DNA of 32,000 nucleotides from Candidatus Heimdallarchaeota archaeon (GTDB lineage: Archaea; Asgardarchaeota; Heimdallarchaeia; JABLTI01): positions 4,025-36,024 of the forward strand of contig JAUWKS010000032.1 in NCBI GenBank assembly GCA_030614005.1, given 5' to 3'. This document shows, one piece after another, positions 9,180 through 32,000 of the stretch (the stretch's first letter is position 1; the number at the start of each line of letters is the position of its first letter). The notes beneath the pieces were generated by a model. It searched no databases and was not told the origin of the DNA. It saw only the letters and a program-made list of their open reading frames with translations. The position numbers were made by a program, and so were the translations under genes.

Positions 9180-9321
9180 AGTTGATTTCTCCTCAAATGT
9201 TAGACTATTATGTTAATACTATCTCTTAAATATTATAAATATCCTCATTCAATAAATGTTTCTTATACAAAATAGCTAAAGATTAAGAAGAAAAAATAAA
9301 AAAAAGGAATGATAATGTTGA

Positions 9322-10797: not shown

Positions 10798-11055
10798 ATG
10801 CGTCCCCCTGAATGTGTAATTTGTGGCAATGATTTTGAACCAGGAGACAAAGGTGGAGTTTTAAATTTTAAAAAACGCTTCTCAGATTACGTTTGGGAGC
10901 GAAAAATGAAGAGAATAGGTGGGGTAGGACACCCTCCATATGCAGAATGGTTCTGTGAGGAACATTATACTCGAGCAGAAGAGCTCACTAGTATGACGAT
11001 CAATAAAGCAATGGAGATTTTAAGAGAAGAGGAAGAACAAAAGAAATCAAAATAA
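10798..11055 (+). CDS. Small putative metal-binding protein
   Basis: MRPPECVICG...GHPP..EWFC..H. Confidence 0.6.
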   Translation: MRPPECVICGNDFEPGDKGGVLNFKKRFSDYVWERKMKRIGGVGHPPYAEWFCEEHYTRAEELTSMTINKAMEILREEEEQKKSK

Positions 11056-11085
11056 AAAATAAATTGTTTGGTTCCTTTCTCAAAC

Positions 11086-13488: not shown

Positions 13489-13780
13489 TAAATGAATGCC
13501 TCCGGTTAAGCACTAAAGGAAAAAATATTCTCCTATAAGAACTTTAACTCAAGCTGGATATACAAATTAATTGCTCTAAGTAATGACATAAAAGTTTTAT
13601 CATTAAAAATGACTCACAAACAATCGATAAAAAAACACCCAAACTGAATGGGAAAGAAGAAATCGGTAAAAGCAAACGCTCATACTACTCGAGATGAAGA
13701 AGTAGCTGTATTCTATAACAATCTAAATTGAAAAAACTAAATATTGGCAAAGCGCATCATAAATTACTAGGTGATAGTTC

Positions 13781-15103: not shown

Positions 15104-15401
15104 CCCGCAAATCGCGAGTAGCAGCAACACCACGATGGGTTTCTTTCATTTGTTTTTCAATTAAACTACCATAAGGACCAATAAGAACACTACCAACAAT
15201 AATGTGGGATTTATCATTCTTGGAGAGACCATCTTCGTTAAATAAATACTCAAAAGAGGCAGAGATGCTACCATCATGTAATTCTTTCATCTCCATAATT
15301 GTAAGCTCCTCAATCTCATATTCAGGTTTCAAAGGGTCAGCCCAACCGGTTCTATCACGGATAAACCGAAGGATGATTTTCTTGGCTTCATCGAAGTTAA
15401 T
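15093..15401 (-). CDS. Hypothetical protein (~102 aa), probable ATT start
   Basis: The frame of ORF 15093-15332 stays open upstream (INFDEAKKIILRFIRDRTGWADPLKPEY); ATT at 15401-15399 lies 7 nt after GGAGG. Confidence 0.5.
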   Translation of the reverse strand: MNFDEAKKIILRFIRDRTGWADPLKPEYEIEELTIMEMKELHDGSISASFEYLFNEDGLSKNDKSHIIVGSVLIGPYGSLIEKQMKETHRGVAATRDLRVTY

Positions 15402-15600
15402 AGTGATTCCTCCAATAATTACTATTGGTAATGAACAAATATAATTTTATCTCATAAATTAACTAGTAGATAAATGATTTGAGATAAAAAAAGAACCATT
15501 CATATTGAGGAGAATAATGATTAGCTAGTTTTTTAAGTAAAAGTGCTAGTAGACAGTACAACGGAAACAATAAGGGAAACATTTCTCATTGGGATAAACT

Positions 15601-16251
15601 TTGGCAGAACGTAAAGAAGAAAATTTTTGGGAATCGGCATTAGAATTCTTTCAAAAACAATCATTAACATTCAAAGTAGCAATTATTGTTATTTATACCA
15701 TAATATTTGTTGGGACCGTAGGAGGACTCATCTCATTAATTGTATTTGGAATAGTTGAAGATTATGTGGGACAAATATTAATATTTTTTGTAGTTGTAAT
15801 TGTAATATTATCTGGTATTTCATTTAGTTTCTTTTTCTTTATAGATAAGTTGGACGATAAAGTTCAAAATAGAAGACATAACCGAAAAAGAAGAAAACAA
15901 ATAAGAGAGTTAGGTTTTGACAGATTAGAGGACGGAGAACAGGCATTATCTTCTGAGGAATTAGAAGAAAGATATAACCAAAGGTTAGCAATGAGGCAAA
16001 ATAGTGAAAGAAGAAGACCAGTAATAGCATTACTGAATGAAAGACCATCAAATGAAACTTTGCTGAAAAAAATGACCTTCAAAGGAGATATTGCCGGAGA
16101 AAAATGTTCAATATGCAAATTGGATCTGAGGAAAAAACAGACTATTGTCCAATGCCCGAAATGTCATGCGCTGTTCCATAATGATCATTTGAGTAATTGG
16201 TTTGAAAAAAACAATGATTGCCCAGTATGTGATGAAATATTAGTAAAATAG
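15601..16251 (+). CDS. Membrane-anchored RING-finger protein (putative E3 ubiquitin ligase)
   Basis: Two N-terminal TM helices, charged coil, C-terminal CSIC-x12-CPKC-x4-H-x2-H-x3-W-x6-CPVC. Confidence 0.8.
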   Translation: MAERKEENFWESALEFFQKQSLTFKVAIIVIYTIIFVGTVGGLISLIVFGIVEDYVGQILIFFVVVIVILSGISFSFFFFIDKLDDKVQNRRHNRKRRKQIRELGFDRLEDGEQALSSEELEERYNQRLAMRQNSERRRPVIALLNERPSNETLLKKMTFKGDIAGEKCSICKLDLRKKQTIVQCPKCHALFHNDHLSNWFEKNNDCPVCDEILVK

Positions 16252-16462
16252 GAATTGCTTATTGAGAAGTGGGAAGATAGTAAAAGCAACACTAGGCTTA
16301 CCAGAAAAATTGATAATATTTTATGCAAAAAATAAGCAGTGCTATTGGAAGTACAAGTCTTTATTTGTTGGGAAAAATAATTCTGGAGAGGGAAGAGCTG
16401 AGAAAGAAACAACAAATAGTGCAATTACAAATTCATAGTTATTTCAAGAAAGATTGTTCCTG

Positions 16463-16582
16463 TCATTCTAGACTTTGATGAACAAAATATTGATTGTAGA
16501 GTGAAGCATATTTTCCTTGTAGGTTTTAAAGATCATTATGGGTTCCTTCCTCAATAATATTACCATTATCCATTACAATGAT
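16463..16582 (-). pseudogene. 3' remnant of ABC transporter ATPase (ABCB-like)
   Basis: IIVMDNGNIIEEGTHNDL*NLQGKYASLYNQYFVHQSLE* is the classic ABCB C-terminal motif, with an internal stop. Confidence 0.7.
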
Positions 16583-16630
16583 GGTCAAAACTCACATTTC
16601 TTCTTACAGGGCTAGTAGTCCAGTGTGGGA

Positions 16631-16663
16631 AGGACGCGCTTCCAGCTTAGATGCTTTCAGCTA
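16631..16663 (-). repeat. 33-nt inverted copy of a 23S rRNA segment
   Basis: Reverse complement TAGCTGAAAGCATCTAAGCTGGAAGCGCGTCCT matches 24746-24778 at 31/33. Confidence 0.85.
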
Positions 16664-17752
16664 AGATTCAGATGTTGTATTAGCAGTTTTGCTAGATTCT
16701 AATTGTTTGAAAGATTGATTAATAATTGTTATTTTGTTTGTTCTACCCCATCTATCACGTTTTAGAACTTTTTTTTCCTCTAATTTTGCTAATATTTTTG
16801 AAACTTTTGATTTAGAATAACCTGTCTTATCACAAATCCTTCTTTGAGTTGAAACACCACCATCTAAATTTATAGCTATGATTATTTCTTGCTCACTTTT
16901 ACTGAGAAGTGAGGTAACCAAATCTTTCTCACGGGTTTTCTTACGCACTGAATAAAAGATGATTACTCCAAGTGAACCTGACATTAGTCCAACGAATAGT
17001 GATAAGATGTTTAGGAAAACTTTGTTACTATTTTCACTAGAAAGTATTATTGATCCTGGAATGTATCTAATAAGGAAAAGGTCACTCTGGTTGATATTTC
17101 TATTAGTGTATTCCCAGCTAATCTTAATTATATCATTTTCTTCACTAATTTTTGAAGGTTTAGGAAAAAGAGGTTCAAGACGTTCTATATCTAGAATTTC
17201 TGCGTAAATTGGTAATAATAATTCAAGATTAAATGCAAGTGAATTTCTTGGATGATTGACCCCATAATTAAGCTCAAAATACTCAGGAATCCCCAATACA
17301 CGATAGACAGTATCTTTAATTTTATATGAAACAGAGAAAGCATAAATTTCATCTTGTAATAAAGGGTATCGCAAGGTAACATTAATCAAATTACCTGTAA
17401 CGGGATTAACAAGCCATATGAATTGTAATGAATCAATTAAATCAAAACAAAAAACTGAGTCTATCGTTTTATTAATTATGAAAGTAAAGAAATTTAGTGG
17501 TTGAGTATCATTATTTATCAAAACAAAAGTAGAAGTAATTTCTAGGGTATTCTCTTGATTAATTTTCACTTTCATTTTATGAGTAAATAATGTTTCATTT
17601 ATGATGGAATTGGATTCCAATGGACAAATAAAATCACTAGTAGTAGGAGATTTTGAAATAGGTATCTCACAGTTACTATTTGACGATTTATGAATACTTA
17701 ATGTTAATAATGTTAAGAAAACCAACATTTTGATATAACTGCGAGGATACAT
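16661..17752 (-). CDS. Membrane protein with extracellular domain and C-terminal winged-helix DNA-binding domain (COG2512-like)
   Basis: Signal peptide, TM helix near aa 245-267, then LSKSEQEII...GGVSTQRRI...GYSKSKVSKILAKLEEKKVLKRDRWGRTN. Confidence 0.8.
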   Translation of the reverse strand: MYPRSYIKMLVFLTLLTLSIHKSSNSNCEIPISKSPTTSDFICPLESNSIINETLFTHKMKVKINQENTLEITSTFVLINNDTQPLNFFTFIINKTIDSVFCFDLIDSLQFIWLVNPVTGNLINVTLRYPLLQDEIYAFSVSYKIKDTVYRVLGIPEYFELNYGVNHPRNSLAFNLELLLPIYAEILDIERLEPLFPKPSKISEENDIIKISWEYTNRNINQSDLFLIRYIPGSIILSSENSNKVFLNILSLFVGLMSGSLGVIIFYSVRKKTREKDLVTSLLSKSEQEIIIAINLDGGVSTQRRICDKTGYSKSKVSKILAKLEEKKVLKRDRWGRTNKITIINQSFKQLESSKTANTTSES

Positions 17753-17789
17753 TAAATTACTTCACCAACTATAACTATTTTTTGAAATG

Positions 17790-18815
17790 TTAATTATTTT
17801 TAAGAAGGATGTGATTAAGGTAAATTCTATTATTATGTCCCTTAGAAGACCTATTTCGTTTTCTAGATAGTATACCAAACATTATCAAAGTAATTATTCC
17901 GCTAACTATAGATATAGAATGGAGTGAAAGAGAAAAATTCTCAGGATAAATACCGATTATTGGATCATGAACCATTTTCAAGGAATTACCATAATTTGGA
18001 TAGGTTAAATATAGCGGAATTGTGTCCAAATCTATTGGAAGGTTTACTGGAATATCTTCGAGTATAGAAGCTTTGCTAACTGAAATATTATTAACTAAAT
18101 CAAGTCCATCATAGATACTAGCGAAATTAGCCCATTCAAAAAAGGCTATCTTATTATCATTATATTCTTCACTCTCAATTTGTATTGATTGACTAGCATT
18201 ACCATTTTCATTATATGTTCCATCTCGTATATTCATTCTGTGGTTTTGTTGAGATTCAAAAACATTAGTGAGAAAAGCAAGACCGGAAGCATTTTCAGTG
18301 AATTCCCAGTTATTAATTACAATGTCAAATTTCATTTCAGTCAATGCATCTACTAAATGATCGGTTCCTTGAATCACTTGATTTTCATTATAGATGTTGA
18401 GAATAAATTGTATTTCAGCCCCGTTTGCCAAACCAGTTAGCGTAAATTCTATTGTTAGTGATGCATCATTCATTGTTATTTGATATGACCAATCACTTGA
18501 AGCTAGATCATAAGAAATACCACCGAGTTCAAGTGGACTATCTAGAACAGCATCATCACCAAAAAATTCCTTAATAGAAATAAACTTCACATTATACATT
18601 TCATTACTTGAAGATTGGTTGCCAACCCACCAAATAAAATGTGGACATATTTTAGCTATTTTTATAGTTATATAATCAGTTGTAATAATTATGTCATTAA
18701 TGTTTTCATTAAAATTAATGCCCTCAGGATTCGCATCCACATTTACAGCAATGGATGGAATTAAAATCACAATCATAATTGCTAAACTAATCACCTGATT
18801 TTTACATTTTATCAT
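17790..18815 (-). CDS. Secreted surface protein with C-terminal TM + basic tail
   Basis: Signal peptide, Asn-rich beta domain, HDPIIGI, TM helix, RKRNR. Confidence 0.7.
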   Translation of the reverse strand: MIKCKNQVISLAIMIVILIPSIAVNVDANPEGINFNENINDIIITTDYITIKIAKICPHFIWWVGNQSSSNEMYNVKFISIKEFFGDDAVLDSPLELGGISYDLASSDWSYQITMNDASLTIEFTLTGLANGAEIQFILNIYNENQVIQGTDHLVDALTEMKFDIVINNWEFTENASGLAFLTNVFESQQNHRMNIRDGTYNENGNASQSIQIESEEYNDNKIAFFEWANFASIYDGLDLVNNISVSKASILEDIPVNLPIDLDTIPLYLTYPNYGNSLKMVHDPIIGIYPENFSLSLHSISIVSGIITLIMFGILSRKRNRSSKGHNNRIYLNHILLKNN

Positions 18816-18901
18816 TTCTTAAACCTTACTTTAAATTTATGAAACTTGACCTACTATCAATTCTAATTAATAATATAATACTGATATCTTTAAACATTTA
18901 T

Positions 18902-18917
18902 TAGCAACGGTTGCCTA
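18902..18917. promoter_or_regulatory. Palindromic operator candidate 1
   Basis: TAGCAACGGTTGCCTA, ~87 bp upstream of the 18815 start. Confidence 0.4.
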
Positions 18918-19160
18918 ACTGATTCCATAGTGTTTCGAATAATTAAATAGATTGAATCATTAAAGAAAATTCCAATAAGCACAAAAATTGAAATTATAAG
19001 AAAAACTATCTAAAATTCATGACGTTTTTATTTCATTTTCATCTAAAGACATCTACCTGAATGCAATTATTAGTTCTAAAAGGATGAATGCACGAAAAAA
19101 TTCAATTTAGATCTAATAAAATAGCTTTTGTTTTTTCTTGGAAACCTTTAGGAATCAATT

Positions 19161-19175
19161 AAGCAACCATTGCTT
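19161..19175. promoter_or_regulatory. Palindromic operator candidate 2
   Basis: AAGCAACCATTGCTT, ~95 bp upstream of the 19271 start. Confidence 0.4.
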
Positions 19176-19270
19176 GAAATTGTTTTTAATTTATTCTGCT
19201 CTATATTTATTTAGATAAATAATCGATTAACGATTAAATATCAAAAAATAAAAAAATGAGGTAATGAAAA

Positions 19271-19828
19271 ATGAACAAAAAATTAGTAGCAATAATAATC
19301 CCGATAGGAATTGTTGGTTTAGTAGTAGCGTCTATGTTTGTTGTCCCCATAATTAAATATGGAGGAGCCACTGTACCAGTTGTAGAAGGTACTTTATCTT
19401 TCGATTGTACACAAGAAGAAACTTTGGATCTTTCGACTGAATTTATAACCCCTAATATCGGTAATGTAGATTTAGTCTTAGAAAATAAAAGAATAAGCGC
19501 AATCAATTATGGCTATGATGGTATCAATGGTAGAAATGAAATTGCGGATGATAATCCAAGCACAGATATTTCCCTTGAATTATCCATTGTGTTCGTGATA
19601 ACCAAAGATGGTGAAGTAGTAAAAGAAATTGATATAGGTGTAATGCATGGCGAAGGTACGCACGATGTTACAATCTTGTTTGGTCCTGAAGAAGGATTAG
19701 ATGTAGCTGGAACATATGAACTAACTATAAAAATTTCACTAAAATTACATACCCCTGGTACAGATTTAACTTTAGACATTGAACTCGGACCTTTTACATT
19801 CGACTTTGACCCAGAGCAAGAGAGCTAA
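19271..19828 (+). CDS. N-terminally anchored hypothetical protein
   Basis: N-terminal TM, beta-rich acidic body; followed by a T-tract at ~19836-19863. Confidence 0.65.
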   Translation: MNKKLVAIIIPIGIVGLVVASMFVVPIIKYGGATVPVVEGTLSFDCTQEETLDLSTEFITPNIGNVDLVLENKRISAINYGYDGINGRNEIADDNPSTDISLELSIVFVITKDGEVVKEIDIGVMHGEGTHDVTILFGPEEGLDVAGTYELTIKISLKLHTPGTDLTLDIELGPFTFDFDPEQES

Positions 19829-19932
19829 AAACCAATTTCTCCTTTTTCTTTTTTTTTCTTTTATTGTTTAATAATAGTATATAATTAGAAATATACACCA
19901 AAAGATACATTTTGCAGTTCAAAGGGAATTAA

Positions 19933-20049
19933 GAATGCAACAAATGCTTGAATTTATTCCATAAAAAACTTTTAGAAGAATGGTTGGAAAAAAACGACTC
20001 TTGTCCAGTGTGCAGCGAGGATATAGTGGAAACAATAGCAGTCGTGTAA
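19933..20049 (+). pseudogene. RING-finger 3' remnant
   Basis: ECNKCLNLFHKKLLEEWLEKNDSCPVCSEDIV aligns with the RING of 15601-16251; in-frame TAA at 19930 and no start. Confidence 0.65.
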
Positions 20050-20252
20050 GACAGACTCATTAGCATATACATTTGCAAGATATGATGCAATTAATGCACA
20101 CTCAGACCAAAATCCAATGAAAGACGACCAATGCTCATATACTTGGTTCCAATATTGGTAAGGGAATCACATACAAAAAAACAAAGGGAAGAATTTTTCT
20201 TCTCTCTTTTTTTTCACGAAATTTTTCGAAAGTGTTAATTAATTTAGCAGAA

Positions 20253-20522
20253 CTATTTTTCAACTTTAAGACCAAAACTAGTACGATCAACAGAAGGCTC
20301 TTCTTGCTCCTTTGCAAAATTCCAAATAATGGATGTGGTGTCTTCGTAATAGATGCCATAAATAGTCCGTTCGGAACCATCGGAAAAAACTGCTACTCCT
20401 TCAAAAACTCGAGCGGTAACAAAGCCATTCTCATCAATACGATACCCTAAAAGCTTCTGGGAGTCAAAACGAGTTACTGGTATTTCACTATCAAAAGTCA
20501 AGATTGAGTTCACTCCAAACAA
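20253..20522 (-). CDS. Small hypothetical protein, tandem paralog 1
   Basis: Shares MFG..ILT...VTRF.SQ.LLGY.ID..G.VTA..F.G.AVFSDGSER.IYGI with 20761-21018. Confidence 0.7.
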   Translation of the reverse strand: MFGVNSILTFDSEIPVTRFDSQKLLGYRIDENGFVTARVFEGVAVFSDGSERTIYGIYYEDTTSIIWNFAKEQEEPSVDRTSFGLKVEK

Positions 20523-20760
20523 ATATAGTATTTCATTGCTACTTTATTTACATTACTATTAAAGAGCGGTTTTCTAAAGAGAAAACTTTGAAAGAATAAT
20601 TGACAGGAAAAAAATGACGTATACCCAACGCGAAAGGGGAAAAGTGTAGAGTCATTAGCAGACGAAGAATCAAAGAAAAAATGACAATCCTAATAAAAAG
20701 AAAAAATTATTTAACCCAGAAAGAAACTCTGGAGTAAATAATACGAAATTATTTTTGAAC

Positions 20761-21018
20761 CTAAAATCCAAAACAATCTCGATCGATATGTGGTTGTTCT
20801 TGTCCTTCTGAATGATCCCAAGTAATAGAGGGGGCACCCTCATTTTGGATGCCATAAATTTTTCGTTCGGAACCATCGGAAAAAACAGCTGCGCCTACAA
20901 AAATTTTAGCGGTGACAGCTCCACTGGCATCAATAGTATAGCCTAAAAGCTGTTGGGATTCAAAGCGAGTTACAGTTAAATTAGTATCGGGTGTCAATAT
21001 GTTAGGAGCTCCAAACAA
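20761..21018 (-). CDS. Small hypothetical protein, tandem paralog 2
   Basis: Colinear paralog of 20253-20522; conservation at protein level supports coding. Confidence 0.7.
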   Translation of the reverse strand: MFGAPNILTPDTNLTVTRFESQQLLGYTIDASGAVTAKIFVGAAVFSDGSERKIYGIQNEGAPSITWDHSEGQEQPHIDRDCFGF

Positions 21019-21723
21019 ATGTTATGAAACAGCGACATAAATAACAATATATATTTTTTCATTGTGGCAGTTAATGCATTACTTCTAAAGATTGAATACC
21101 TGACTTAGATAATGTTGAAAGAATGATCGGTAACTGTCTGATAAGAATGGAGCGAATCAGCAAGCACTGTTTTTTATTAAATTATAGCGAGAAACACTCG
21201 AGAGTATCAATAAGTGAAAAAATTAAAACAGAGAAAGAAAGCAATTAACAGTTAACAGTTAAAAGACAGATAACAAACACAAAGAAATTAACACCTCTGA
21301 GTGCCAAAAAAAGTTAAATAGAAAAAAGAGTACTATTAACTTTACCGAGGAATTTTGTGTCGAGTGAAAAGAGATATTCTATCCTAGTAGCAAGATTTAA
21401 AACAGTCGGGCAAAACAACAAACCGCTCTGATAGAGCAGAACACTGAACAAAAAACAATACGAATGGGAATACAAATCCTATCGGTATGTTTTTATAATG
21501 AAAAATTCAGTGAACAAAACCGCGAACAATCGCACAACAACAGCAATTGTTGAGCGAAAAGACGCAAAATTACGATAATTGATTAAATTATTGATGCGCT
21601 TGGCGAGACAGTGAAGCTCGCTGAGTAAGAGGTAAAAAATGTGACCACCTGGCGCATCGGTATGGGAATAATGATCAAACATTTCTCTCAAACCGAACGC
21701 TAATTAAGACGTCTGTTTTTACC

Positions 21724-21763
21724 GTAGAAGGCCTCACTTCTTCAAGTGAAATCTAGATCTCCA
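21724..21763 (+). other. 5' arm of pre-23S processing stem
   Basis: GTAGAA-GGCCTC-CTTCTTC-AAG..TCTAGA-TCTCCAT is complementary to 25033-25078. Confidence 0.75.
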
Positions 21764-23786
21764 TAGTAGGTTCCGACACGCAAACGCCATCTGGGGGATG
21801 GATTGGCTCGGACGCCGATGAAGGACGTGGCTAGCTGCGATAAGCGCGGGGTAGCTGCAGGCAGGCATAGAACCCGTGATTTCCTAATGGGAACTCCTAA
21901 TGCGAACCAATAAGTCGCATTACTCCGTAAGGAGGGGGAACGCACCGGACGGAAACATCCAAGTAGGTGCAGGAAAAGAAATCAACTGAGATGCCCAGAA
22001 GTAACGGCGAGTGAAATGGGCATAGGCCAAACTGAATCCCCATACGCAAGTATTGGGAAATGTAGTGTTACGGACTCTCTATTGAGCTCTGCGATGCGAA
22101 GCTGAATATTCTGGAAAGCTTAACTAAAGAGGGTGATAGTCCCGTAAGCGTAAACATCCCTGAGTGTGAGAGTATCCTGAATAGCGGGGGTTGGAAATCC
22201 CTCGTGAATGGGGCACAACGAGCTCCAAGCCTAAATACGTTCCGAGACCGATAGCGCAATAGTAACGTGAGTGAAAGCTGAAAAGTAACCCGGAAGGGTA
22301 GTGAAAAGTGCCTGAAACCAGATGGTTATAGACGTTTGTGGCCCGAAAGGTAAGATCCTCCATGAAGAGAAAGCTGGTGACAGCTAGATCGTTTGGAGGG
22401 GACCGGGGTCACAAGTTCCGTCTAGAAACACGGACCAGGGAGGTCATACTTGTGGCAAGCTTAAGTGATGTCAAAAACACGCAAGCGTAGCGAAAGCGAC
22501 ATGCCCGCAGTTTACAAGGGGCGCCGTCTGAAAGGGCGGGAAGTCACAGGTGTGAGACCCGAAACCGGACGATCTACCCCTGAGCAGGCTGAAGCCTAGG
22601 GAAACCTGGGTGGAGGGCCGAGCAAGTATTGACGTGCAATTCATGTTTGTTGACTTGGGGGTAGGGGCAAAAGACCAATCTAGTCCGGTGATAGCTGGTT
22701 CCCAACGAAGTGGACATAGGCCAGCCTGCTCTGAGATGGAGCATTCGGTAGAGCAATGATTGATGGTTACGGGAAGTAAAATTCTCGCCTGTCAGTCAAA
22801 CTACGAACGGATGTTTATCGTAGAAGAGTAGAGTCGGGCGTGCGTGCGTAAGGCACGTGGCCGAAAGGGGAATAACCCAGACTATGGTTAAGGTCCCTAA
22901 ATCTCGATTAAATGCTAAAATTGGAAGGACGTCATTGGACTAAGACAGTAAGGCGGTAGGCTTAGAAACAGCCACCCGCTAAGAAAAACGTAACAGTTTA
23001 CTTACCGAGTCCTTTGGCTCCGAGAATGGACGGGGCTAAATCGAGTACCGATACCTTAGAATACATTGAAAGATGTAATTTGATAGTTGGGCGATCTGGT
23101 TGGGCGGAAGCAGGGCAGTGATGTCCTGTGGACCGATCAGATTTGCAGATCCTGGCGGTAGTAACAGCAAAGAGAGGTGAGAATCCTCTCCGCCGAAAGG
23201 GCAAGGTTTTCACGGCAACGTTCGTCAGCCGTGAGTTAGTCGATCCTAAGGGCGCTCTTATCTGCGGCGCTCGAAAGGGAAACAGGTTTAAATTCCTGTA
23301 CTGCGTGGATACGTCAGAAGCGGCAACGCGAAGATCATTTTCTGACGCGACTGGATAAGCTCTGTAAAGTTATCGCTTTATTTAACTATATAACCCTCAG
23401 AAGTACCGTGACGGTGAGAATGAGGTGAAATTAGGAATAGGCTGCCAATAGTGGCGGCTCGAGCTTTTTCCACTCGCCCATGAAAAGGAAAATGATAAGG
23501 ATTCCACGTAATCGTACCCAGAACTGACACAGGTGTCCCAAGGTGAGAAGCCTAAGGCGTGTTCGATCAACGATGGTGAGGGAAATCGGCAAATTCGCCC
23601 CGTAACTTCGGGATAAGGGATGCCTGTGGGCTTGAAAGGGCTCGCAGGTCGCAGTGACAAGGAAGGAACAACTGTTCAATTCAAACATAGCAAACCGCAA
23701 GGGTGAAAACCTGTGAACGGTTTGTGAATCCTGCTCAATGCTGGTATGTGAAAGCCGGGTCCAACCGGTCCAAGCACCAGTCAATA

Positions 23787-23826
<40 letters not shown>

Positions 23827-24353
23827 TGTCGGATAAGTACCGACGTGCATGAACGGATCAATGATTCCTTCGCTGTCCCCACCGTCGATCGAGTGAACCC
23901 ACTAGCCAGCGAACAGTCTGGCACCAACCAGCGGGAAGAGAAGACCCCGTGGAGTTTTACTGCAGCCTGTGCCTGTTTTACGGGTAGTTATACATAGTGT
24001 AGTCAGGAGCGTCGAACCAAATTCTCAGGGATTTGGGAATGCAACAATGAAACACTGACTTTAACGGCTTGTTTGACTAACTTCTACTTCTGTAGAAGGA
24101 CAAGTATTGGTGGGCAGTTTAGCTGGGGCGGCTGCGCTTGAAAAGGTATCGAGCGTGTCCAAAGGTTAGCTCAGAAGGGACGGAAACCCTTCGTAGAGTA
24201 TAAGAATAAAAGCTAGCTTGACAGGGTTCTTTCCCATAGGGAACTCTGCAACGAAAGTTTGGTCTAGCGATCTGTCGATGGATCTCGTTGATTCACGGCA
24301 GCGGCAGAAAAATTACCCCGGGGGTAACAGAGTCGTCGCAGGCGAGAGCTCAC

Positions 24354-24422
24354 ACTCTCCAGACAAAAAGTTACCTCGATATATAAAGAAAGATCTAGGT
24401 TTACGTTCTGGAGGAGGAGTAT
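24354..24422 (+). other. 69-nt BHB-type intron in 23S helix 89 loop
   Basis: GCTC/GAGT central helix, ACA and ATA bulges; excision gives the consensus GAGCUCAC|AUCGAC. Confidence 0.88.
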
Positions 24423-24510
24423 ATCGACCCTGCGGCTTGCTACCTCGATGTCGGCTCTTCCTCTCCTGGCGCCGCACAAGACGCCAAGGGTAGGGTTGTA
24501 CGCCCATTAA

Positions 24511-24553
<43 letters not shown>

Positions 24554-24604
24554 ATTCTTTCTACTGGTTGTGCTGGGAAATTGAGGGTAGGGCAGGGTCG
24601 GTAC

Positions 24605-24665
24605 ATTGTATGAGATGTACAGATTCAAACTACATGATTAGTTTAGTAATCTCTTATAAGCCAAA
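24605..24665 (+). other. 61-nt BHB-like intron in the sarcin-ricin loop (helix 95)
   Basis: Excision gives GUAC|GAGAGGAC; intron stem TTGTATGAGAT/ATCTCTTATAA; relaxed BHB. Confidence 0.85.
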
Positions 24666-24792
24666 GAGAGGACCCCCCCGTCGGCGCCTCTAGTCTACCG
24701 GTTATCTGACAAGGTAACGCCGGGCAGCCACGCGCCAAGCGATAATAGCTGAAAGCATCTAAGCTAGAAACGCGTCCTGAAACGAATTTCCC

Positions 24793-24923
24793 ATTCTAAC
24801 GAAGTTTCGACAATGATTGACTCTTACAAGCTGTTTAGAGTTGTGTTACAATTATGAAAAATTATTTTTTTAGTTGGTCGTTTCGAGCATGGGAATGGCG
24901 ACATTAACATGTTTTCGTTGGAC
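24793..24923 (+). other. Supersized expansion segment ES39 (helix 98 position)
   Basis: 131 nt between AATTTCCC and GAAGG; basal stem 24795-24804/24913-24922, long stem 24807-24821/24873-24886, GCGA tetraloop hairpin 24894-24905. Confidence 0.8.
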
Positions 24924-25003
24924 GAAGGTTCCGATACAAGATCGGTTTGAAAGGAGTGCGGTGTACGCGTCGAGTCTTCGGGCGAGATGCTCAGCCGGCA
25001 CTT

Positions 25004-25065
25004 ACTTACCACCTAAGCGTGTCATTACCGAAATGGACTTCTAGACCTTAAAGAAGAAGCGAGGG
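25004..25065 (+). repeat. Direct repeat copy 1 (23S 3' end + processing-stem arm; attL-like)
   Basis: 25020-25058 is identical to 29684-29722 (39 bp), with imperfect extension on both sides. Confidence 0.9.
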
Positions 25066-25094
25066 CCGTAGATTCTACAAAATAATTATCAGTT

Positions 25095-25140
25095 ATTTTT
25101 TCTTTTCTTTTATCCCCTACAGTCTCAGGTGAGACTAGGG
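25095..25140 (+). terminator. T-tract and hairpin after pre-23S
   Basis: TTTTTTTCTTTTCTTTT followed by the CCCT-AC-AGTCTC-AGGT-GAGACT-AGGG hairpin. Confidence 0.45.
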
Positions 25141-25634
25141 TTACTGATTGAAAAATGGATCTACTTTATTTATTTAAAGTTAACTTGAAGAAGTAACCAT
25201 TTTTGATCGGATATTTTAAGTTATTCTAAGATTTATTTCTAGTATTAATTTTTTCTCAGTAAAATAGTTAAATTTTTGTTGAATTTATGTATAAGGTATT
25301 TGTTTAGAAATTGGAAAAAAATTAGAGGGATAGGATATTTTACTTGCTGAATTACTAAAAATGGAAAACAAGTAAATACCAGGTTATTCCAAGAAGATTC
25401 TGCTTAGAATATCTTTTTGGAATCTTTGGTTAATTTCTGTTTTAGTTTTTTCTTTGAACTTGAAGAGAAAGTGTGCACAAAAACCATCTATTATTATTTC
25501 CTCTTTCTTATTTATTCGAATATCCCGCAATATCTATAATTCTATTGAATAAATTTAAATCCTAAAGTATGTTTTTGTTTAAAAGAACTTTTAAATCCTA
25601 TAGAAGAGTATTAGATTTTGGTTTCACAAGATCA

Positions 25635-26801
25635 TTATTTTAAAATTTGATATAGTTTATTATATTTTTTAATTAGGTATTTATCATAAATTAATGAGTC
25701 TAAAGCTGTACTAGCTTTTTTACCCAAATGTATAAGTTCTATTTTTTTTATTTTTTTATTAATTATTTTTCTATTAATTAATTTTTTATTAATAATTGAA
25801 CCTAATTTTAAGTTATCAGTAATCTCTCTATAATTATTTTCATTTAAAAATTCAAAGAATCCTTTTACCAAATCCTTATTTTTAAAGAAATCGAGTATAA
25901 TCTTAAATTCGAGTAAAGGTTCATCTGATTTCTCTTCAACAAGTTTCTTACATAATTTTATCAAATTATGACTTTCATTACCAAAATTAAAGTCTATAAA
26001 TTTTCTATGCAACTTGCTTATTAAATGAAGATCGATGAGTTTAATATCTGAATAATCACTTTTTCGACCAATTAAATTTAAGATTTTCTTTATATCGGAT
26101 ATTTCTGAGATGAAGTTTTCGAAATCTACACTAAAATTTGATTTTGATTTATATTTATTTATGAAATTGTTTTTTTTCCATTTCTCTTGTACCAATTTAG
26201 TGATTTCTTCATTATTCAGGAATATAATTTCATCTATTGGTGTTCTAGTGTAGAAATGTGCTAATTTTCCAATGATTACTTGTCTTGCGGGTTCAATTAC
26301 TCTCGCCATCCAACAATTATTGAAGTTATTTTTCACAATTTTATATGGAATCGAAAATGGATTTTGAAAATCTATGTAAAAAGGACCTGCTGTTTTATTT
26401 TCACTAATTTTAATCTCAGGTAAATAGCAAATTCTAGTGGTATCTCTAATATTTTTCTTTGAAAATTCAACATAACTTGTATTTCTAGATTTTATAGGTT
26501 TTGTATGATATAATGGATAGAACACAAGATTATATTTTGGTCTTATTTCACAATCTTGACTTGCTAAAATTCCATAAGTTGGTTTAAGGAAAGTTTCAAT
26601 AAATATCGCTTCTCCTTCACCTATAACTCTAGATTGTAGTAACTCAGCTTCATTCTCTAAACTATCTCTACCAATTTTTGATTCAACCAAAATGTCATTT
26701 GTAATTATTGGTAAATTCCTAAATATATCTCCTTGTTTAAGTGAAGATTCATTTCTTTTCAATTTGTATTTATAAATTATATCTATCATTGAAATACACA
26801 T
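25635..26801 (-). CDS. Hypothetical protein with N-terminal PemK/MazF-like domain
   Basis: LKQGDIF...ILASQDCEI...LVFYP...CYLP...IDFQNPFSI...MARV...KLAHFYTR resembles the PemK-like pattern, followed by a long helical tail. Confidence 0.5.
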   Translation of the reverse strand: MCISMIDIIYKYKLKRNESSLKQGDIFRNLPIITNDILVESKIGRDSLENEAELLQSRVIGEGEAIFIETFLKPTYGILASQDCEIRPKYNLVFYPLYHTKPIKSRNTSYVEFSKKNIRDTTRICYLPEIKISENKTAGPFYIDFQNPFSIPYKIVKNNFNNCWMARVIEPARQVIIGKLAHFYTRTPIDEIIFLNNEEITKLVQEKWKKNNFINKYKSKSNFSVDFENFISEISDIKKILNLIGRKSDYSDIKLIDLHLISKLHRKFIDFNFGNESHNLIKLCKKLVEEKSDEPLLEFKIILDFFKNKDLVKGFFEFLNENNYREITDNLKLGSIINKKLINRKIINKKIKKIELIHLGKKASTALDSLIYDKYLIKKYNKLYQILK

Positions 26802-26811
26802 TTTCCTTTAA

Positions 26812-27168
26812 TCAACCAAAATTGGTATTTTTTGTAATGTTTGAAGCGAATAACACAAGCTTTCGTAATAAATATCTACACTCTTCAAATTCCTTTATTT
26901 TTGGAATTTCATCATAATACCCTTTCCAATAAACAACATCTAACCAATCATAGTAAAAAAAACCTTTAACAAAAGAGCTAAATAAATAATCATAAGTTAA
27001 ACAAGAAACTTGAAAAGGAAGGTTAATAGTTAAAAAATTCTCAGAATCGGTCATTTTGCTTTCAAGAGCGACTGCATTGAATCTTTCATAAAGTGTAGCC
27101 AAAGTTAATGGTGGATTTCTTATTTCACCTTTCATATCTAATATTTTCCTTATAAAGATAGAGAACAT
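26812..27168 (-). CDS. Hypothetical protein (possibly the 3' part of a frameshifted gene)
   Basis: Frame is open ~15 codons upstream of the ATG and overlaps the end of 27201-27383. Confidence 0.45.
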   Translation of the reverse strand: MFSIFIRKILDMKGEIRNPPLTLATLYERFNAVALESKMTDSENFLTINLPFQVSCLTYDYLFSSFVKGFFYYDWLDVVYWKGYYDEIPKIKEFEECRYLLRKLVLFASNITKNTNFG

Positions 27169-27200
27169 TTCAGGAATTATATATTGAGCTTCTTTCTGTT

Positions 27201-27383
27201 CTAATAGTATTCTCTAAATACGCTATCTAAGTACTGATTGAAAAACTTTGCAGTTTTTTCAACGTTGAAGTCTTTATTTTCCATACATTCTTTGGAATAT
27301 AATATCTTCACGAATTCACTAGTTTTTGTTTTAAATTCAAATATAATTTCATCTCTTGATTTAGAAGTAAAAATTTTTGACAT
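27201..27383 (-). CDS. Small hypothetical protein (possibly the 5' part of a frameshifted gene)
   Basis: 60 aa, operonic spacing after 27395-28129. Confidence 0.4.
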   Translation of the reverse strand: MSKIFTSKSRDEIIFEFKTKTSEFVKILYSKECMENKDFNVEKTAKFFNQYLDSVFREYY

Positions 27384-27394
27384 CTATATACCCA

Positions 27395-28129
27395 CTAAAA
27401 TTCCTCATCCAATAATCCTAATTCTTCTTTATAATCTTCTGTTAGGAATTCGATAAAATATGTTACAATCATATTATGCGCATTGTTTAGTTTCATTTCC
27501 AATTCATCTGAGTTTATGTTTATATCGAGATTTCCATTTATAAAAATACTTTCGATTTGAAATTTATAGAACTCATCTCGTTCGGGAAGAGATTTAAATC
27601 TTAGAATTATCTTTTGGTGGTCTTCCATGGATTCAAATGCTTTAATACCAAAAGTTATATCATTGTATTTTATATCCCAATTGTCTGGTGTTTCAATAGA
27701 TACAGTAAAGTATTTCTTAAAATTGAACCCTTCTTTTTGAATTGAAAATAAATCAACATAAATCAAATTAATTCCTGAAATAGCAGGAATTTTAATTATT
27801 TTATTTAAAATCCTTAGTGTTTTTAGTATCCTTTCTATTTCTCGTTGCCATACATCATAATTAGAAAATCCAAACACTAAGAAATCTTTGCCTAATTCAA
27901 ATCCATTTTTATTGTCCTTATCTAAGAATCGAATAGGTCCCAGTCCGAAATTTATCTCTCCCTGTCGTGGTACCAGCATAATTTTTGGACTATTTGGATA
28001 TATTTCCTTTAGTTTTTTTGATATTTCAGACAAATCGGTAATATTCAGATCTTCAATACTACCTGTTAAATTAATTTCAACCTTAAAGTAATTAAGTGTT
28101 TTATCAACAAAACGAACAATCCTTTTCAT
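27395..28129 (-). CDS. TIGR04255-like protein
   Basis: LKEIYP...RFLD...F.LG.D...Y..W...I..GINLIYVDLF...AH..I..YF..FLT pattern and ~240 aa length resemble this family. Confidence 0.55.
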   Translation of the reverse strand: MKRIVRFVDKTLNYFKVEINLTGSIEDLNITDLSEISKKLKEIYPNSPKIMLVPRQGEINFGLGPIRFLDKDNKNGFELGKDFLVFGFSNYDVWQREIERILKTLRILNKIIKIPAISGINLIYVDLFSIQKEGFNFKKYFTVSIETPDNWDIKYNDITFGIKAFESMEDHQKIILRFKSLPERDEFYKFQIESIFINGNLDININSDELEMKLNNAHNMIVTYFIEFLTEDYKEELGLLDEEF

Positions 28130-28555
28130 ATTAGATAAATCAAATACTTGAATATATTATTTTTTCTATAATATTTCTATTGAGGTTACAATAACCTTTT
28201 ATATATATTTCAAACAAATTCATAGTTATTTACGGAATTTACTAGCAAATTAATTAAATAAATGCTCTAATACAGCTTTTACTTGTTGTTAAAACATATC
28301 ATTACTAAACTGTACTTCTATACCTTTAAAGAAGTGGGTGTTGTGTTTCCTACATTTACTCCTGAATAATTAGCTTTCTCAATCCCTTTTTCAAATTCTT
28401 CTTCTAGATATTTCATAATTCTCTCTTTATATTTCACATCTATTCGTCTCCAAATATCTTTCTTCTTAATGAGTTTAGAATTTAATTTGAAGGTTTAAAA
28501 CCTCATCTAAAAAGTAGAATCGAATTATATTACTTTTCCTCATCAATTAGTTCTT

Positions 28556-29542
28556 TTGCTTTCTTCAATAATAAATGGCCCAATCGATACTGATAAATTA
28601 GATTATTTAGTCAGAGATAGTAAAAATTGCTTTCTGAAGTATGGTGAAATAATAGATTTTGATCGTATGGTTCGCAATTTGACTGTTATAATCACTAAAA
28701 ACGAATATGGACAACGAATACTTACACTAGGTACCTATGAAAAAGGTCGATCTGCTGCTGAATCATTTGCTTTTGCTAGATATTTACTATATCAATCATT
28801 ATATTGGCACCATACTGCAAGAGCTTCTAGAGCAATGCTCCGAGAAGCTGCAAAATCTGCTTTTAAAGGAAAGGGGGGGCAACCAGATTTATTTCTTAAA
28901 GCATTTCAAAATTTACTTGGTGTTAAGAAAAAAATAGCTGGAGGAAATATGATAGCAGTAGATGATATTTTGGACCTTATTGGAAAATATGCTGAAAATG
29001 AGTTTGATTTTATTGAAATGATAAAAGCGAGGAATTATTACAAGAGAATACTCACTGTTCACCGGTATCCATTAAATCATAATGAAGAATCAATGTTGAA
29101 TGATTACAGAAATGCAATAAAGACTAATGCAGATTTTCAAGAGATTTTAAGAAACTCTATTTTAGAGAAATTTCAAAACTTTATAATTAACACAAAATTA
29201 AAACGAAAATCAATACTAACAGTTGAAAAAATGAATGAAACTATAAGATTTTTGAAAAAACCTGGTTCAATCTTATGTGATTGTCCTAAACCTCCATACG
29301 GATCTACAGTAGGTTTAAAATTTATTCCAGAACCAAAGAAATTGAAAACAAACTACTATAAGAGATTTGAAATTGGTGAAAAATTATCTGATATTTGGTA
29401 TAGACCATATAATGAGCTAATGAAAATAGTATCAAAAGGAAGAGTTTTTTGTCATCCTGAGATAAGAGATGTTTTATTGGTTTCAATAGGCGAAGAAGGA
29501 TTGAAAGAATGTTTGCTAAATTCAATTAAAATCACACAATAA
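28556..29542 (+). pseudogene. 5'-truncated HD-domain dNTP triphosphohydrolase-like (SAMHD1/dGTPase family) gene
   Basis: IINGPIDTDKLDYLVRDS...IDFDRMV...KG..AAESFAFARYLLYQSLYWHHT.RA..AML is the C-terminal half; the HD motif half is absent. Confidence 0.75.
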
Positions 29543-29667
29543 ATTTAGTTCTGGTATTACTAGTCTAAAATAATCACTTATTACCATTTAACTGAAGCAA
29601 AGATGTCCGCATTAAAATGGAAAGGGCACTTGGAATGAATTGGACAACAAAATATCAGAATTCAAGT

Positions 29668-29730
29668 ACTTGCCACCTAAGTATGTCATTACCGAAATGG
29701 ACTTCTAGACCTTAAAGAAGAATGTGAGGG
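29668..29730 (+). repeat. Direct repeat copy 2 (attR-like)
   Basis: ACTTGCCACCTAAGTATGTCATTACCGAAATGGACTTCTAGACCTTAAAGAAGAATGTGAGGG versus 25004-25065. Confidence 0.9.
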
Positions 29731-29936
29731 AACTGAATTAGATGTAAAGGTGTTTCCAAATAAGCATAAATCTGCTTATTATGCTCACTTAACATCTGTT
29801 TTCTATTGCTTAAAATGCGGAAAGATAATCTCAGTTAATGTTGTTAAAGGGGGCTAGAGATTCTTTTTTCTTTTATCTTTTTTATGTCTAGTTCAGGTTA
29901 GGCTTATTGAATTGAAGAATTGTTTTTGAAGTTGTA

Positions 29937-30953
29937 TCATTTTGAAAATCGTTCACCTCTACCAGGAAATGGAAATTTCAGTTCGCGCAATTCTCGTTTC
30001 AAAATTCTCTTGACTTCTCTGTAGGAGGAAATATTTGGTAATTCAATTTGATTTTGTATCTCTTTTAATGTTCCATTAAATCTCTCAAACGTATAGATAC
30101 AAGCCAATGAAAGGTATGTTGTTCTTTCAGCTAACGAGTACTCGCAATTAGCTTCCTTGCTTGAAGCAATTTTATAGGCTTTTAAAATTAAATCTTGAAC
30201 TTCAGGCAATTCCCTTAACAATAGTAATGTTCCAAAACAACCTAACCGCAATAAATCCTTAACATCTAGTTCTTTACCAATAATTTCTTTTTTTGCAAAT
30301 TGGAGGAATTCCACCGCGATTTTACGAAAAATGGTTGTTTTCTCATCATATGTAAGATACGTTTTGATATTTCTGTTTTCCAATGGTTGAGTGTCAAAAA
30401 CTTCTTCTTTATCCAAATGATCTATCCATTTCTCATAATTAAAAGAGTAAAATTTATTGTTCTCAATCGCATCTAATTGGCGAATGCTATTCAGTGATAG
30501 GAAATTTGTTACCAACAAATTTGAAGTAAAGAGGAAAGTATCAAATAAGGATAATTCACTGCAATTAATTGGAATGTCTTCTAGTTCTATTTTGATATTC
30601 TTTAATCGTAATTTCTCAAGGTTGTTTGTTTTTTCTAATTCCGCAGAAACACCTAAAGTACAACCATCTGTATCATTACATATGCCTACTAAACTGCTCT
30701 CCCACCAAAGTAATTGGAATTCCTTCTTTTTATCTTCCATTTTGTATTCATTCAAGATTTTCTTTGCATTCAGAGCGATTTTCTTTGGAAATTCATACCT
30801 TTCTAAAGCAATCCTATAGAAATCTGTACAAAGTTTCCTTGATCCAATTTGTGTGAAATCTCTATTATCAAAATTAATGCATCCAATAATATTGTCCTCT
30901 AAAATCACAACAGCTATTGGTTCCTTTATATACATCAAATTATGTTTTTTCAA
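29937..30953 (-). CDS. Hypothetical protein
   Basis: 338-aa ORF with no motif I can assign. Confidence 0.6.
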   Translation of the reverse strand: MKKHNLMYIKEPIAVVILEDNIIGCINFDNRDFTQIGSRKLCTDFYRIALERYEFPKKIALNAKKILNEYKMEDKKKEFQLLWWESSLVGICNDTDGCTLGVSAELEKTNNLEKLRLKNIKIELEDIPINCSELSLFDTFLFTSNLLVTNFLSLNSIRQLDAIENNKFYSFNYEKWIDHLDKEEVFDTQPLENRNIKTYLTYDEKTTIFRKIAVEFLQFAKKEIIGKELDVKDLLRLGCFGTLLLLRELPEVQDLILKAYKIASSKEANCEYSLAERTTYLSLACIYTFERFNGTLKEIQNQIELPNISSYREVKRILKRELRELKFPFPGRGERFSK

Positions 30954-31225
30954 TTTGTTCTCACCAAAACCGGTACTTTCAAATCAATAATGATTTATTT
31001 CTAATGCTTAAAAACTTCTTGAGAAATTTATAATCAATAATTTTCAAGATCTTTCAGAAGATGCAAGAAGTGGTCTTCAATCAATTAGAATTTTCCTTTT
31101 CTTTTACTTGTCTTAATTTATCCTAGTTGAGATTAGGTTTTAGACTTGAAAAAGAGAATTTTGAGTTTTTAGATTTATTGCATTGTATATTTTACTTGAA
31201 GAAGTAATTTTTTCTTTGTTATTAT

Positions 31226-31722
31226 TTAGAAAATGACTGATTCAATAATTGAATAGGCAATATTGCCTACAATAGAGAGTATCCCTGTAGAAAGTGTTAC
31301 TAAAAGTAAAACATTTCTTATTAGATATCTCTTAGTTGTTGGTTTCTTCTGCTCTTTCATTATCCAAGCATGTTTTTCAAATAATTTTACTATCCTATCC
31401 TTATAAATATCAGTACAATGGAAGGAAATATGTAAATTAAATTAGCCAATGTTGTCATCAACAATCCTAGAACCATAAGTAGAACATTCCACATATAGTA
31501 CTCATTACCTATTGAATAATAGACAGAATGAAATATCCCTATACAGATTGCCATTGAGGATCCTGCTGCAATCATAGTTCCGTTTATTATGTAAAAAATT
31601 CGATAATATTTATCAAATGCTTCTCTTCCTTCAATTTCTACTTCCTTTCTTATCTCTTCGTCTTTCTCCTCTTTCCGATCTACTTTTATTATGATTATTC
31701 CTCTCCAAATCTGAGATAACAT
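31226..31722 (-). pseudogene. Membrane protein, probably frameshifted near 31395
   Basis: ORF 31390-31722 continues in another frame as KDRIVKLFEKHAWIM...VLLLVTLSTGILSIVGNIAYSIIESVIF*. Confidence 0.4.
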
Positions 31723-31903
31723 TTCCCATTATTCGTCAAAATTTTGCTCTTCTCTTTTATTGCTTTATCTTTTTTATATATTTCTTTAAGAGTAACTTTA
31801 ACTATATTGTCAATTTCATTCATATTATTACGAAGATTCTCGATTCTTGTTTACTTAAAATTGAACTACTTGTTATTAATCTAAAAATATTACTCAATAC
31901 AAC

Positions 31904-31999
31904 TTACAAACCCCTCATCATTTCTAAGAGTTCCAAAATCTCTTTATCCTTTTCTGATAGAAGAAGTGTTTCATAGATAATCTCGTCAAGAGAAGAGAA
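31904..31999 (-). CDS. 3' end of a gene entering from the right edge
   Basis: FSSLDEIIYETLLLSEKDKEILELLEMMRGL*. Confidence 0.35.
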   Translation of the reverse strand, partial: FSSLDEIIYETLLLSEKDKEILELLEMMRGL

Positions 32000-32000
32000 T

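Follow-up and report, generated by a model that had tools for sequence, protein, structure and literature searches.

Our data identify the 3' end of a 23S rRNA gene as the anchor of an array of small gene cassettes in a Candidatus Heimdallarchaeota genome. The DNA analyzed here, which we call the window, is a stretch of 32,000 nucleotides (nt) comprising positions 4025-36024 of contig C95 of that genome (G000:C95:4025-36024), its right end being the end of the contig; all positions given without a contig name are those of the window. Window positions 25001-32000 are the root of a strain-variable array of cassettes that has the 3' end of the only 23S gene as its anchor, and the repeat that separates the cassettes is, according to co-folding predictions, composed of the last ~25 nt of 23S and the 3' strand of a relaxed processing stem resembling the bulge-helix-bulge (BHB) type. 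The copy of this repeat at the 23S gene is a conserved border between syntenic chromosome and hypervariable DNA. The window is of particular value because it includes the anchor itself, that is, the genuine 23S gene together with the leader and the cassettes that come first. The anchor and the copies of the repeat that follow it are listed below.

21724-21781, + strand: leader (5') strand of the pre-23S processing stem, pairing with the tail copy at 25017-25078 (leader/trailer co-fold)
21770-25028, + strand: the only complete 23S (large-subunit, LSU) rRNA gene of the assembly, the array anchor (Rfam RF02540, 2542 bits, model positions 1-2987)
25001-25066, + strand: copy A, the functional master copy, with the 23S 3' end, the helix-1 strand, and the 3' strand of the processing stem (repeat search, alignment, co-fold)
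25035-25059, + strand: 25-nt core of copy A, GGACTTCTAGACCTTAAAGAAGAAG (pattern match; homology with three congeners ends at 25059/60)
25060-25196, + strand: long-form right arm, or trailer module (96% shared with G010:C35 up to 25200; twelve copies align)
28280-28341, + strand: copy B, degenerate and co-oriented (63% identity to copy A in register; nhmmer E value 9e-4 over 3.7 Mb; kept by the second-round model)
29663-29730, + strand: copy C, distal, with GTATGTC in place of GCGTGTC and a core at 29699-29723 with one change (repeat search, alignment, pattern, co-fold)

A preliminary description of this DNA had reported an exact direct repeat at 25020-25058 and 29684-29722 and had read it as the two ends of a single genomic island inserted at the 23S processing signal. 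The repeat is real: both the repeat finder and alignment recover the 39 identical nt, within a direct repeat (25003-25058 and 29667-29722) that is 95% identical over 56 nt and whose similarity extends to about 25066 and 29730. A 23-nt core pattern allowing three or fewer mismatches matches three times in the window, against 0.01 matches expected from shuffles. Since copy B lies inside the enclosed 4.66 kb, the stretch consists of two cassettes, the first two of an array, and not of one island. What stands of the original proposal is that the tail is a recurrent insertion point, with four congeners carrying different DNA from the same junction; the single element bounded by attL and attR is not supported.

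Comparison with 10 congeners, all of them, like G000, metagenome-assembled genomes (MAGs), shows how sharply the syntenic chromosome ends at the 23S tail. At the protein level (tblastx), window positions 2050-15440 are syntenic with G005:C98, G007:C99, and G009:C20, the 23S gene follows in each, and none of the three has anything in common with the window to the right of 25058-25060. DNA matches of seven congeners end at query position 110, which is 25059. Among the four congeners with assembled flanks, shared sequence ends at 25059/60 in three and at 25200 in one; in the latter (G010:C35), identity is 96% across the tail and as far as 25200, after which the sequences have no relationship. We considered G010:C35 as an empty-site allele and rejected it, as it shares the tail and the trailer module and then carries other cargo. 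Every congener carries other cargo at this position, and no empty site was found at 23S. The only sequencing runs listed as containing the stretch are three metagenomic DNA runs of one cold-seep study, all as Logan contigs, with no RNA run among them. Many contigs of all three runs depart from the reference exactly at 25059 or enter it at 25003/25005, representing other copies of the repeat; neither a 25059-to-29723 joint nor a circle back-joint was found in these contigs, which drop rare forms and hence do not show excision to be absent.

The repeat is a member of a large family. The unit, ~60 nt in total, comprises the last ~25 nt of 23S, a 25-nt core (GGACTTCTAGnCCTTnAAGAAGAAG), and a right arm, and some copies have a long form of ~200 nt that ends in a second GAAGAAG box. 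A search with the tail sequence found 16 matching places in its own genome, and at least 15 copies in G000 lie on contigs C95, C102, C66, C55, C71, and C112: five to seven on C102 (10.4 kb), all in a single direction, two to three on C66, one on C55, two on C71 that retain ~63 nt of 23S, and one orphan on C112, in which at least 145 nt match 23S and ~300 nt of diverged 23S 3' end are present in all. The family occurs in nine of the 10 congeners, with up to 20 or more matches each, and in none of the other genera searched. An exact-pattern scan of 185,579 species genomes matched almost only Candidatus Heimdallarchaeota MAGs, while a metagenome scan with the 25-nt core added 55 further loci. In G005:C98, copies continue for ~26 kb after the 23S gene, up to the end of the contig, and four further contigs of the same genome carry arrays.

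The organization of these arrays is strikingly regular. A profile search of fetched loci of G000 and the congeners, using the second-round model, counted 140 copies, co-oriented on every contig; the sole exception is an inverted copy on C95. The median spacing is 1337 nt, and 74 of 104 intervals hold one or two genes. The orientation of the genes themselves is unbiased (of the genes to the left of a copy, 66 face it and 59 face away; of those to the right, 71 have the same direction as the copy and 57 the opposite one). The cargo includes DUF433/DUF5615, HEPN/nucleotidyltransferase, TumE, ThsB-TIR, AbiEii-like ATPases, an HpaII restriction-modification pair, and HNH, in addition to HEAT-repeat proteins, TSP3/FG-GAP surface proteins, and an ABC transporter.

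All-against-all comparison of the 1-kb flanks of the copies, with positions counted from the TCTAGA anchor, allowed us to localize the point of exchange. Most copies have a common left boundary near -38. Where two copies have the left cassette in common, their alignment reaches +17 to +23; where they have the right cassette in common, it starts at -15 to +6. The identity of right arms (+18 to +45) is 0.86 (0.79-0.96) in right-sharing pairs, compared with a background of 0.60, and the mean for left arms (-36 to -9) is 0.75 in left-sharing pairs, compared with 0.65. These alignment limits and arm identities together place the exchange zone in the 25-nt core. In a conservation profile of 120 distal copies, each base of the core is 80 to 99% conserved, in contrast to 40 to 80% for the arms. 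Bases that are unpaired in the rRNA stem are conserved as well as paired ones, and the paired ATGGA and GCGTGTC segments are less conserved; as conservation thus disregards pairing, the constraint looks like DNA recognition rather than maintenance of an RNA duplex. Junctions cluster at GAAGAAG boxes, and the right arms fall into few families.

As Rfam ends the LSU rRNA at 25028, ~25 nt of the repeat belong to the 23S 3' end and ~40 nt to the trailer. Leader and trailer co-fold into a long stem (-60.7 kcal/mol) in which helix 1 (GACACGC/GCGTGTC) is followed by GGT/ACC, TCCAT/ATGGA, the palindromic TCTAGA/TCTAGA, and a short TGA/TTA between internal loops of 2 to 3 nt, and which continues outward through CTTCTTC/GAAGAAG to an outer GGCC helix. 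The co-fold thereby agrees with the earlier statement that the repeat covers helix 1 and the BHB arm with TCTAGA in its core. In the master copy A, and only there, leader and trailer pair in the helix-bulge-helix-bulge-helix order around the mature ends, in a relaxed form, and the trailer-side bulge AAA lies within the core. The GTATGTC change in copy C, previously taken as a loss of helix-1 pairing, was read correctly and overstated in its effect: it amounts to one mismatch and one wobble, and the predicted duplex with the leader is -58.9 kcal/mol, versus -60.7 kcal/mol. The leader itself is not repeated, as blastn-short of 21640-21800 against the genome finds itself alone. The outer stem covaries with each genome's own right arm, reading TCAC/GCGAG in G000 and ACAC or GCAC/GTGTG in G005 and G009. 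The right arm beside each genome's 23S gene is thus predicted to pair with that genome's leader, and by this model the function of the rRNA is preserved.

A subset of right arms, found in the master copy A and many copies of G010, is ~140 nt long, carries a conserved 9-bp long-range stem, and ends in TTAACTTGAAGAAGTAA, after which divergence is total. In copy A, this trailer module contains the outer stem strand GCGAGGGCC, an oligo-T run downstream of the stem (25096-25115), a conserved hairpin, the 9-bp long-range stem, and the second box TTAACTTGAAGAAGTAA at 25180-25196, directly after which the variable DNA begins. When window positions 25068-25173 are aligned with 11 other copies, the 9-bp stem (GTAGATTCT/AGGATCTAC) encloses the oligo-T run and the hairpin CCTA..TCTC AGGT GAGA.TAGG. 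The ~140-nt module may be an element with a structure of its own, at the RNA or the DNA level; its copies are too alike to show covariation.

Evidence of movement comes from cassettes shared between contexts and from one occupied chromosomal spacer. The same cassettes have different neighbors within and between genomes; for example, a nucleotidyltransferase-HEPN cassette is found in one context in G000 and in two others in G010, with DNA that is ~90% identical. A conserved chromosomal spacer is occupied at G000:C71:50579-52980 by ~2.4 kb of DNA made up of two tail copies and two cassettes, one with a glycosyltransferase-like gene and the other with a small pair of genes; this block replaces ~50 to 65 nt that are intact, as an empty site, in G010:C20 and G001:C295. 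The block ends exactly with a tail copy (...GAAGAAGTGAGTGG), and its insertion junction can be placed only approximately, the replaced spacer being too diverged for base-level placement. On C102, one copy matches 51 nt of the 23S tail at 100% identity, and the same cassette in G010 has a diverged arm.

The first two cassettes, and the DNA that follows them to the end of the contig, contain the features listed below, as determined from open reading frames (ORFs) and from scans of the cargo with Pfam, NCBIfam, and PADLOC.

25197-28279, - strand: cargo of cassette 1, four genes (ORFs; Pfam, NCBIfam, PADLOC)
25635-26801, - strand: cassette 1 gene, 388 amino acids (aa), no family (ORF and family scans)
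26812-27168, - strand: cassette 1 gene, 118 aa, no family (ORF and family scans)
27201-27383, - strand: cassette 1 gene, 60 aa, no family (ORF and family scans)
27395-28129, - strand: cassette 1 gene, TIGR04255 family (ORF and family scans)
28342-29662, + strand: cargo region of cassette 2, between copies B and C
28556-29542, + strand: 5'-truncated remnant of an HD-type phosphohydrolase, of which the HD_assoc_2 part alone is left (Pfam PF19276, E value 2e-12)
29721-29925, + strand: right arm of a second type (29721-29869, shared with G010:C9 at 76% along 149 nt by blastn) and a T-rich stretch after it
29937-32000, - strand: accessory genes past copy C up to the contig end, of 338 aa (29937-30953) and 110 aa (31390-31722) (ORFs)

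PADLOC and Pfam named nothing in the cargo of the window beyond TIGR04255 and HD_assoc_2. The HD remnant starts within the last HD motif, and all three frames upstream of it are full of stops. Homologs of the 388-aa protein were not found in any of the 10 congeners, and the DNA of cassette 1 has no homolog in the fetched loci. The description of the 4.66 kb as AT-rich accessory DNA holds in that the DNA is strain specific and has a GC content of ~27%; the difference is modest, with ~33% in the non-rRNA DNA upstream and ~30% in the DNA past copy C. The T-rich stretch that comes after the second type of right arm reads as related to 25072-25160. The 338-aa protein was likewise not found in any of the 10 congeners, and this gene past copy C being strain specific as well, the variable DNA does not stop at copy C. 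To the right of copy C, 2.3 kb remain before the contig ends, and the array probably continues beyond that end. There is no tRNA gene in the window and no second full 23S gene in the G000 assembly.

Several copies of the repeat, or repeats like it, stand apart from the arrays. Within the window, the inverted copy noted above is a diverged orphan.

16590-16663, - strand: inverted, diverged orphan tail copy (nhmmer E value 3.5e-8; pattern match with two mismatches; sequence)

In this orphan, 33 nt of the 23S H96/97 region (equivalent to 24746-24778) are joined directly to the left arm and core; from the sequence, a deletion of ~250 nt between two CTAAGC...GCGTCC motifs seems to have occurred. 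The orphan lies directly against the stop codon of a winged helix-turn-helix (wHTH) gene (16661-17752) and at the edge of a G000-specific block between the syntenic genes and 23S, placed at about 15440-21670 by the synteny gap and put at ~3.4 to 4.8 kb in size. Just upstream of this block is a RING-finger (zf-RING_2) gene (15601-16251, + strand); RING domains are uncommon in archaea outside the Asgard lineages. The orphan on C112 (G000:C112:14700-14991; L091:9700-9992) consists of ~300 nt of diverged 23S 3' end, with a different sequence in the ES39 region, plus core and right arm, and it stands alone in an intergenic region of a syntenic locus, with no counterpart there in G010:C19. The latter contig carries, relative to G000:C112, an insertion of ~13.7 kb (G010:C19:61047-74724) with a 525-aa tyrosine recombinase (G010:C19:71490-71813), which is probably an ordinary integrated element. 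Lastly, G000 has a second array, on C25 (6589-6656, with copies at 8725, 9632, 10454, and 12106), which repeats the last ~35 to 65 nt of a PLD-family gene; we saw no motif common to this array and the 23S-tail core, and the repeat sequences are unrelated.

We propose that the arrays probably arose by repeated site-specific insertion at the 23S tail, catalyzed by an enzyme acting in trans. In this scenario, a site-specific recombinase encoded elsewhere would join a circular cassette, bringing its own site of left arm, core, and right arm, to the core, either that of the 23S tail or that of any copy farther along. Conservative recombination would leave the true 23S end intact, the incoming right arm would become the new trailer and would still have to pair with the leader, and the tail-like left arm of the cassette would be displaced distally. 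Repeated insertion would stack cassettes, while old copies decay, as copy B may have done, and cargo erodes, as the HD remnant may illustrate.

Several observations weigh against this proposal, among them the outcome of the search for the enzyme. The single PF00589 match of G000, Xer-like in size, is on C58, far from any array; no PF00589 match was found on C95 or any array contig, and none to PF00239 or PF01797 (resolvase, Y1 transposase) anywhere in G000. No tyrosine recombinase of five congeners is on an array contig, and among 1560 ORFs of the array and metagenome loci we found no homolog of 12 tyrosine and serine recombinases of this genus. Furthermore, the left arms are much less tightly linked to the cassette than the flanking DNA is, which fits gene conversion or variable crossover better than clean exchange; the variable DNA of long-form copies starts at the second box, ~135 nt past the core, and not at the core; the C71 block has a recognizable copy at one end only; and, all genomes being MAGs, the arrays may not be continuous across contigs. 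Beside the anchor itself, no recombinase was found in G000, where the genes upstream of 23S encode the RING-finger protein, the wHTH protein, and unknowns, and none of the G005 ORFs between the syntenic block and 23S looks recombinase-like, as judged by eye without a family scan. We also rejected the repeat as the remnant of a split integrase gene, as left by elements of the Sulfolobus spindle-shaped virus (SSV) type: the consensus has stops in all six frames. Single-stranded DNA folds of six copies were no better than those of shuffles (z scores of -1.47 to +0.42), and with no hairpin fold and stops in all frames, the repeat is neither an attC site nor a split integrase gene. A scan of IMG/VR with the 23-nt core gave three hits, which we judged to be chance because they match the core only, within coding-like DNA.

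That no recombinase was found in or near any array is also what would be expected if no dedicated enzyme were involved. The copies would then be portable patches of homology, with cassettes looped out and reinserted by homologous recombination or gene conversion between copies of 60 to 200 nt, and the first arrivals would be owed to insertion with long target duplication, in which a target stretch is duplicated on both sides of the incoming DNA. This explanation, which we regard as rather unlikely but as the most serious competitor of site-specific insertion, would accommodate the varying extent of 23S homology in the left arms (~25, 63, 145, and roughly 300 nt), their weak linkage to the cassette, and the C102 copy, whose perfect 51 nt beside a diverged G010 arm look like conversion. 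The PLD-tail array on C25 points the same way, as the tail of an anchor gene may outweigh any one motif. However, conversion should homogenize core and left arm alike, whereas in distal copies the core is far better conserved than the left arm, although the two are equally protected in the master. Moreover, junctions at GAAGAAG boxes rather than spread over the repeat, and right arms in few discrete families, as the arms of a site are, speak against it.

The single integrative element of 4.66 kb that the preliminary description envisaged, using the 23S tail as attB, bounded by attL and attR, and later deprived of its integrase, now appears improbable. It draws on the 95% identity of copies A and C, which bracket strain-specific, slightly AT-richer DNA without an integrase. 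Nevertheless, a third copy splits the stretch, the DNA past copy C is strain specific up to the contig end, and the 140 copies lie in arrays of one- to two-gene units, too small to have carried an integrase. The loss of the integrase would be a hypothetical step, and the cassettes, with a median of 1.3 kb, seem inherently to lack one. The things to look for that had been named together with this element did not turn up either: we found no empty site at 23S, no circular junction in the Logan contigs, and no integrase-bearing version in the congeners, IMG/VR, or the 55 metagenome loci.

A role at the RNA level seems very improbable. The copies would in that case serve as spare 3' halves of the BHB-like stem, pairing with the leader or with partners in the cassettes and letting cassette transcripts be processed or circularized by the splicing endonuclease and RtcB, the array being a by-product. 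It is true that the core is part of the 3' strand of such a stem, with the bulge AAA inside, and that copy C is predicted to be still capable of pairing with the leader at -58.9 kcal/mol. Yet the leader strand is repeated nowhere, the arrays contain no inverted copies, unpaired stem positions are as conserved as paired ones (with the paired ATGGA and GCGTGTC less so), an oligo-T run follows the stem at 25096-25115, the genes of cassette 1 are on the opposite strand, and genes in general are unbiased in orientation relative to the copies. Hardly credible, finally, is the view that the copies descend from additional 23S genes that decayed or from segmental duplications at the rRNA locus: the C112 and C71 orphans do keep ~300 and 63 nt of 23S 3' sequence, but 140 co-oriented copies spaced ~1.3 kb apart, most with a common left boundary near -38 and separated by unrelated cargo without further traces of rRNA, do not fit such an origin.

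What is new here is the anchor, the placement of the exchange zone, the conservation profile of the core, the second box, the covariation with the leader, and the empty site corresponding to the C71 block. What may be the most extensive variable region of these genomes has the 23S tail as its fixed border, and archaeal mobile DNA is not known, from the literature searched (PMC8371274), to land at rRNA genes. Since the insertion site overlaps a signal for ribosome maturation, every insertion must supply a working new trailer. The enzyme, if found, could be a new site-specific recombinase with a defined 25-bp target, and the arrays could explain the shuffling of defense and toxin-antitoxin genes in the closest archaeal relatives of eukaryotes.

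Full-text searches of the literature found no published report of these arrays or of insertion at an rRNA tail; rRNA is mentioned neither in a review of archaeal tyrosine recombinases (PMC8371274) nor in the study that found attC integrons to be enriched in Asgard MAGs (Ghaly et al. 2022, PMC9668308). The arrays resemble integrons, specifically sedentary chromosomal integrons and clusters of attC sites lacking integron integrases (CALINs), among them those described from Asgard MAGs in that study, in being long and one directional, with cassettes of one to two genes separated by a repeat that looks like a recombination site, in a cargo rich in toxin-antitoxin and defense genes, in the recurrence of the same cassette in varied orders and contexts, which our feature test confirmed, and in having one fixed entry point, analogous to attI. 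In contrast to attC, which folds as a hairpin and is conserved in structure, the 23S-tail repeat is not a hairpin and is conserved in sequence; furthermore, there is no IntI beside the anchor or in the arrays, entry takes place at an rRNA gene end, and the cassettes are not co-oriented, so that, with genes unbiased in orientation, a promoter logic of the Pc type is unlikely. Of four integron features tested, therefore, IntI, the hairpin attC, and co-oriented cassettes are absent, and the one-directional array of small cassettes is present.

Integrative elements stacked at gene ends, such as tRNA and transfer-messenger RNA (tmRNA) islands, cis-mobilizable elements (CIMEs), and the staphylococcal cassette chromosome (SCC) at rlmH/orfX, likewise use a conserved gene end as attB, with a direct repeat for each insertion, and include integrase-less units that are stacked in tandem and would be mobilized in trans while old units decay. 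As in an island with an RNA gene as its attB, we found a direct repeat of the gene 3' end around strain-specific DNA with the gene intact; the integrase of such an island, or a relative of the element bearing one, was not found. The 23S-tail system differs in its target, the 23S rRNA tail and pre-rRNA processing stem, and in its units, which are far smaller, number dozens to more than 100 per genome, and have no integrase-bearing parent that we could find. With the archaeal BHB pre-rRNA stem, which is cut by EndA and joined by RtcB, the likeness is confined to the anchor: copy A (25001-25078) and the leader (21724-21781) are predicted to form such a stem in relaxed form, with the core in its 3' strand, while the distal copies, lacking a leader partner and with a conservation that does not track pairing, are not processing stems themselves.

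Xer-dependent dif modules, such as the pdif modules of Acinetobacter plasmids, are small gene modules, often toxin-antitoxin pairs, bounded by short conserved sites and served by a housekeeping recombinase encoded elsewhere. The cassettes described here are also small modules bounded by short conserved sites, in a genome with exactly one tyrosine recombinase, which is Xer-like in size. In contrast to dif, however, the 23S-tail core reads as lacking the 11-6-11 dyad, with only a weak ACTTCT...AGAAGT symmetry, and its copies are direct, not alternating. We tentatively suggest, as an idea that may yet prove wrong, that the arrays represent a new integron-like gene-capture platform of Hodarchaeales-type Asgard archaea. 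Its entry site would be the pre-23S processing stem, its cassette site a non-hairpin, sequence-conserved element of ~60 to 200 nt, and its recombinase either of no recognized family or a recruited host enzyme, together building arrays of dozens to more than 100 defense and toxin-antitoxin cassettes.

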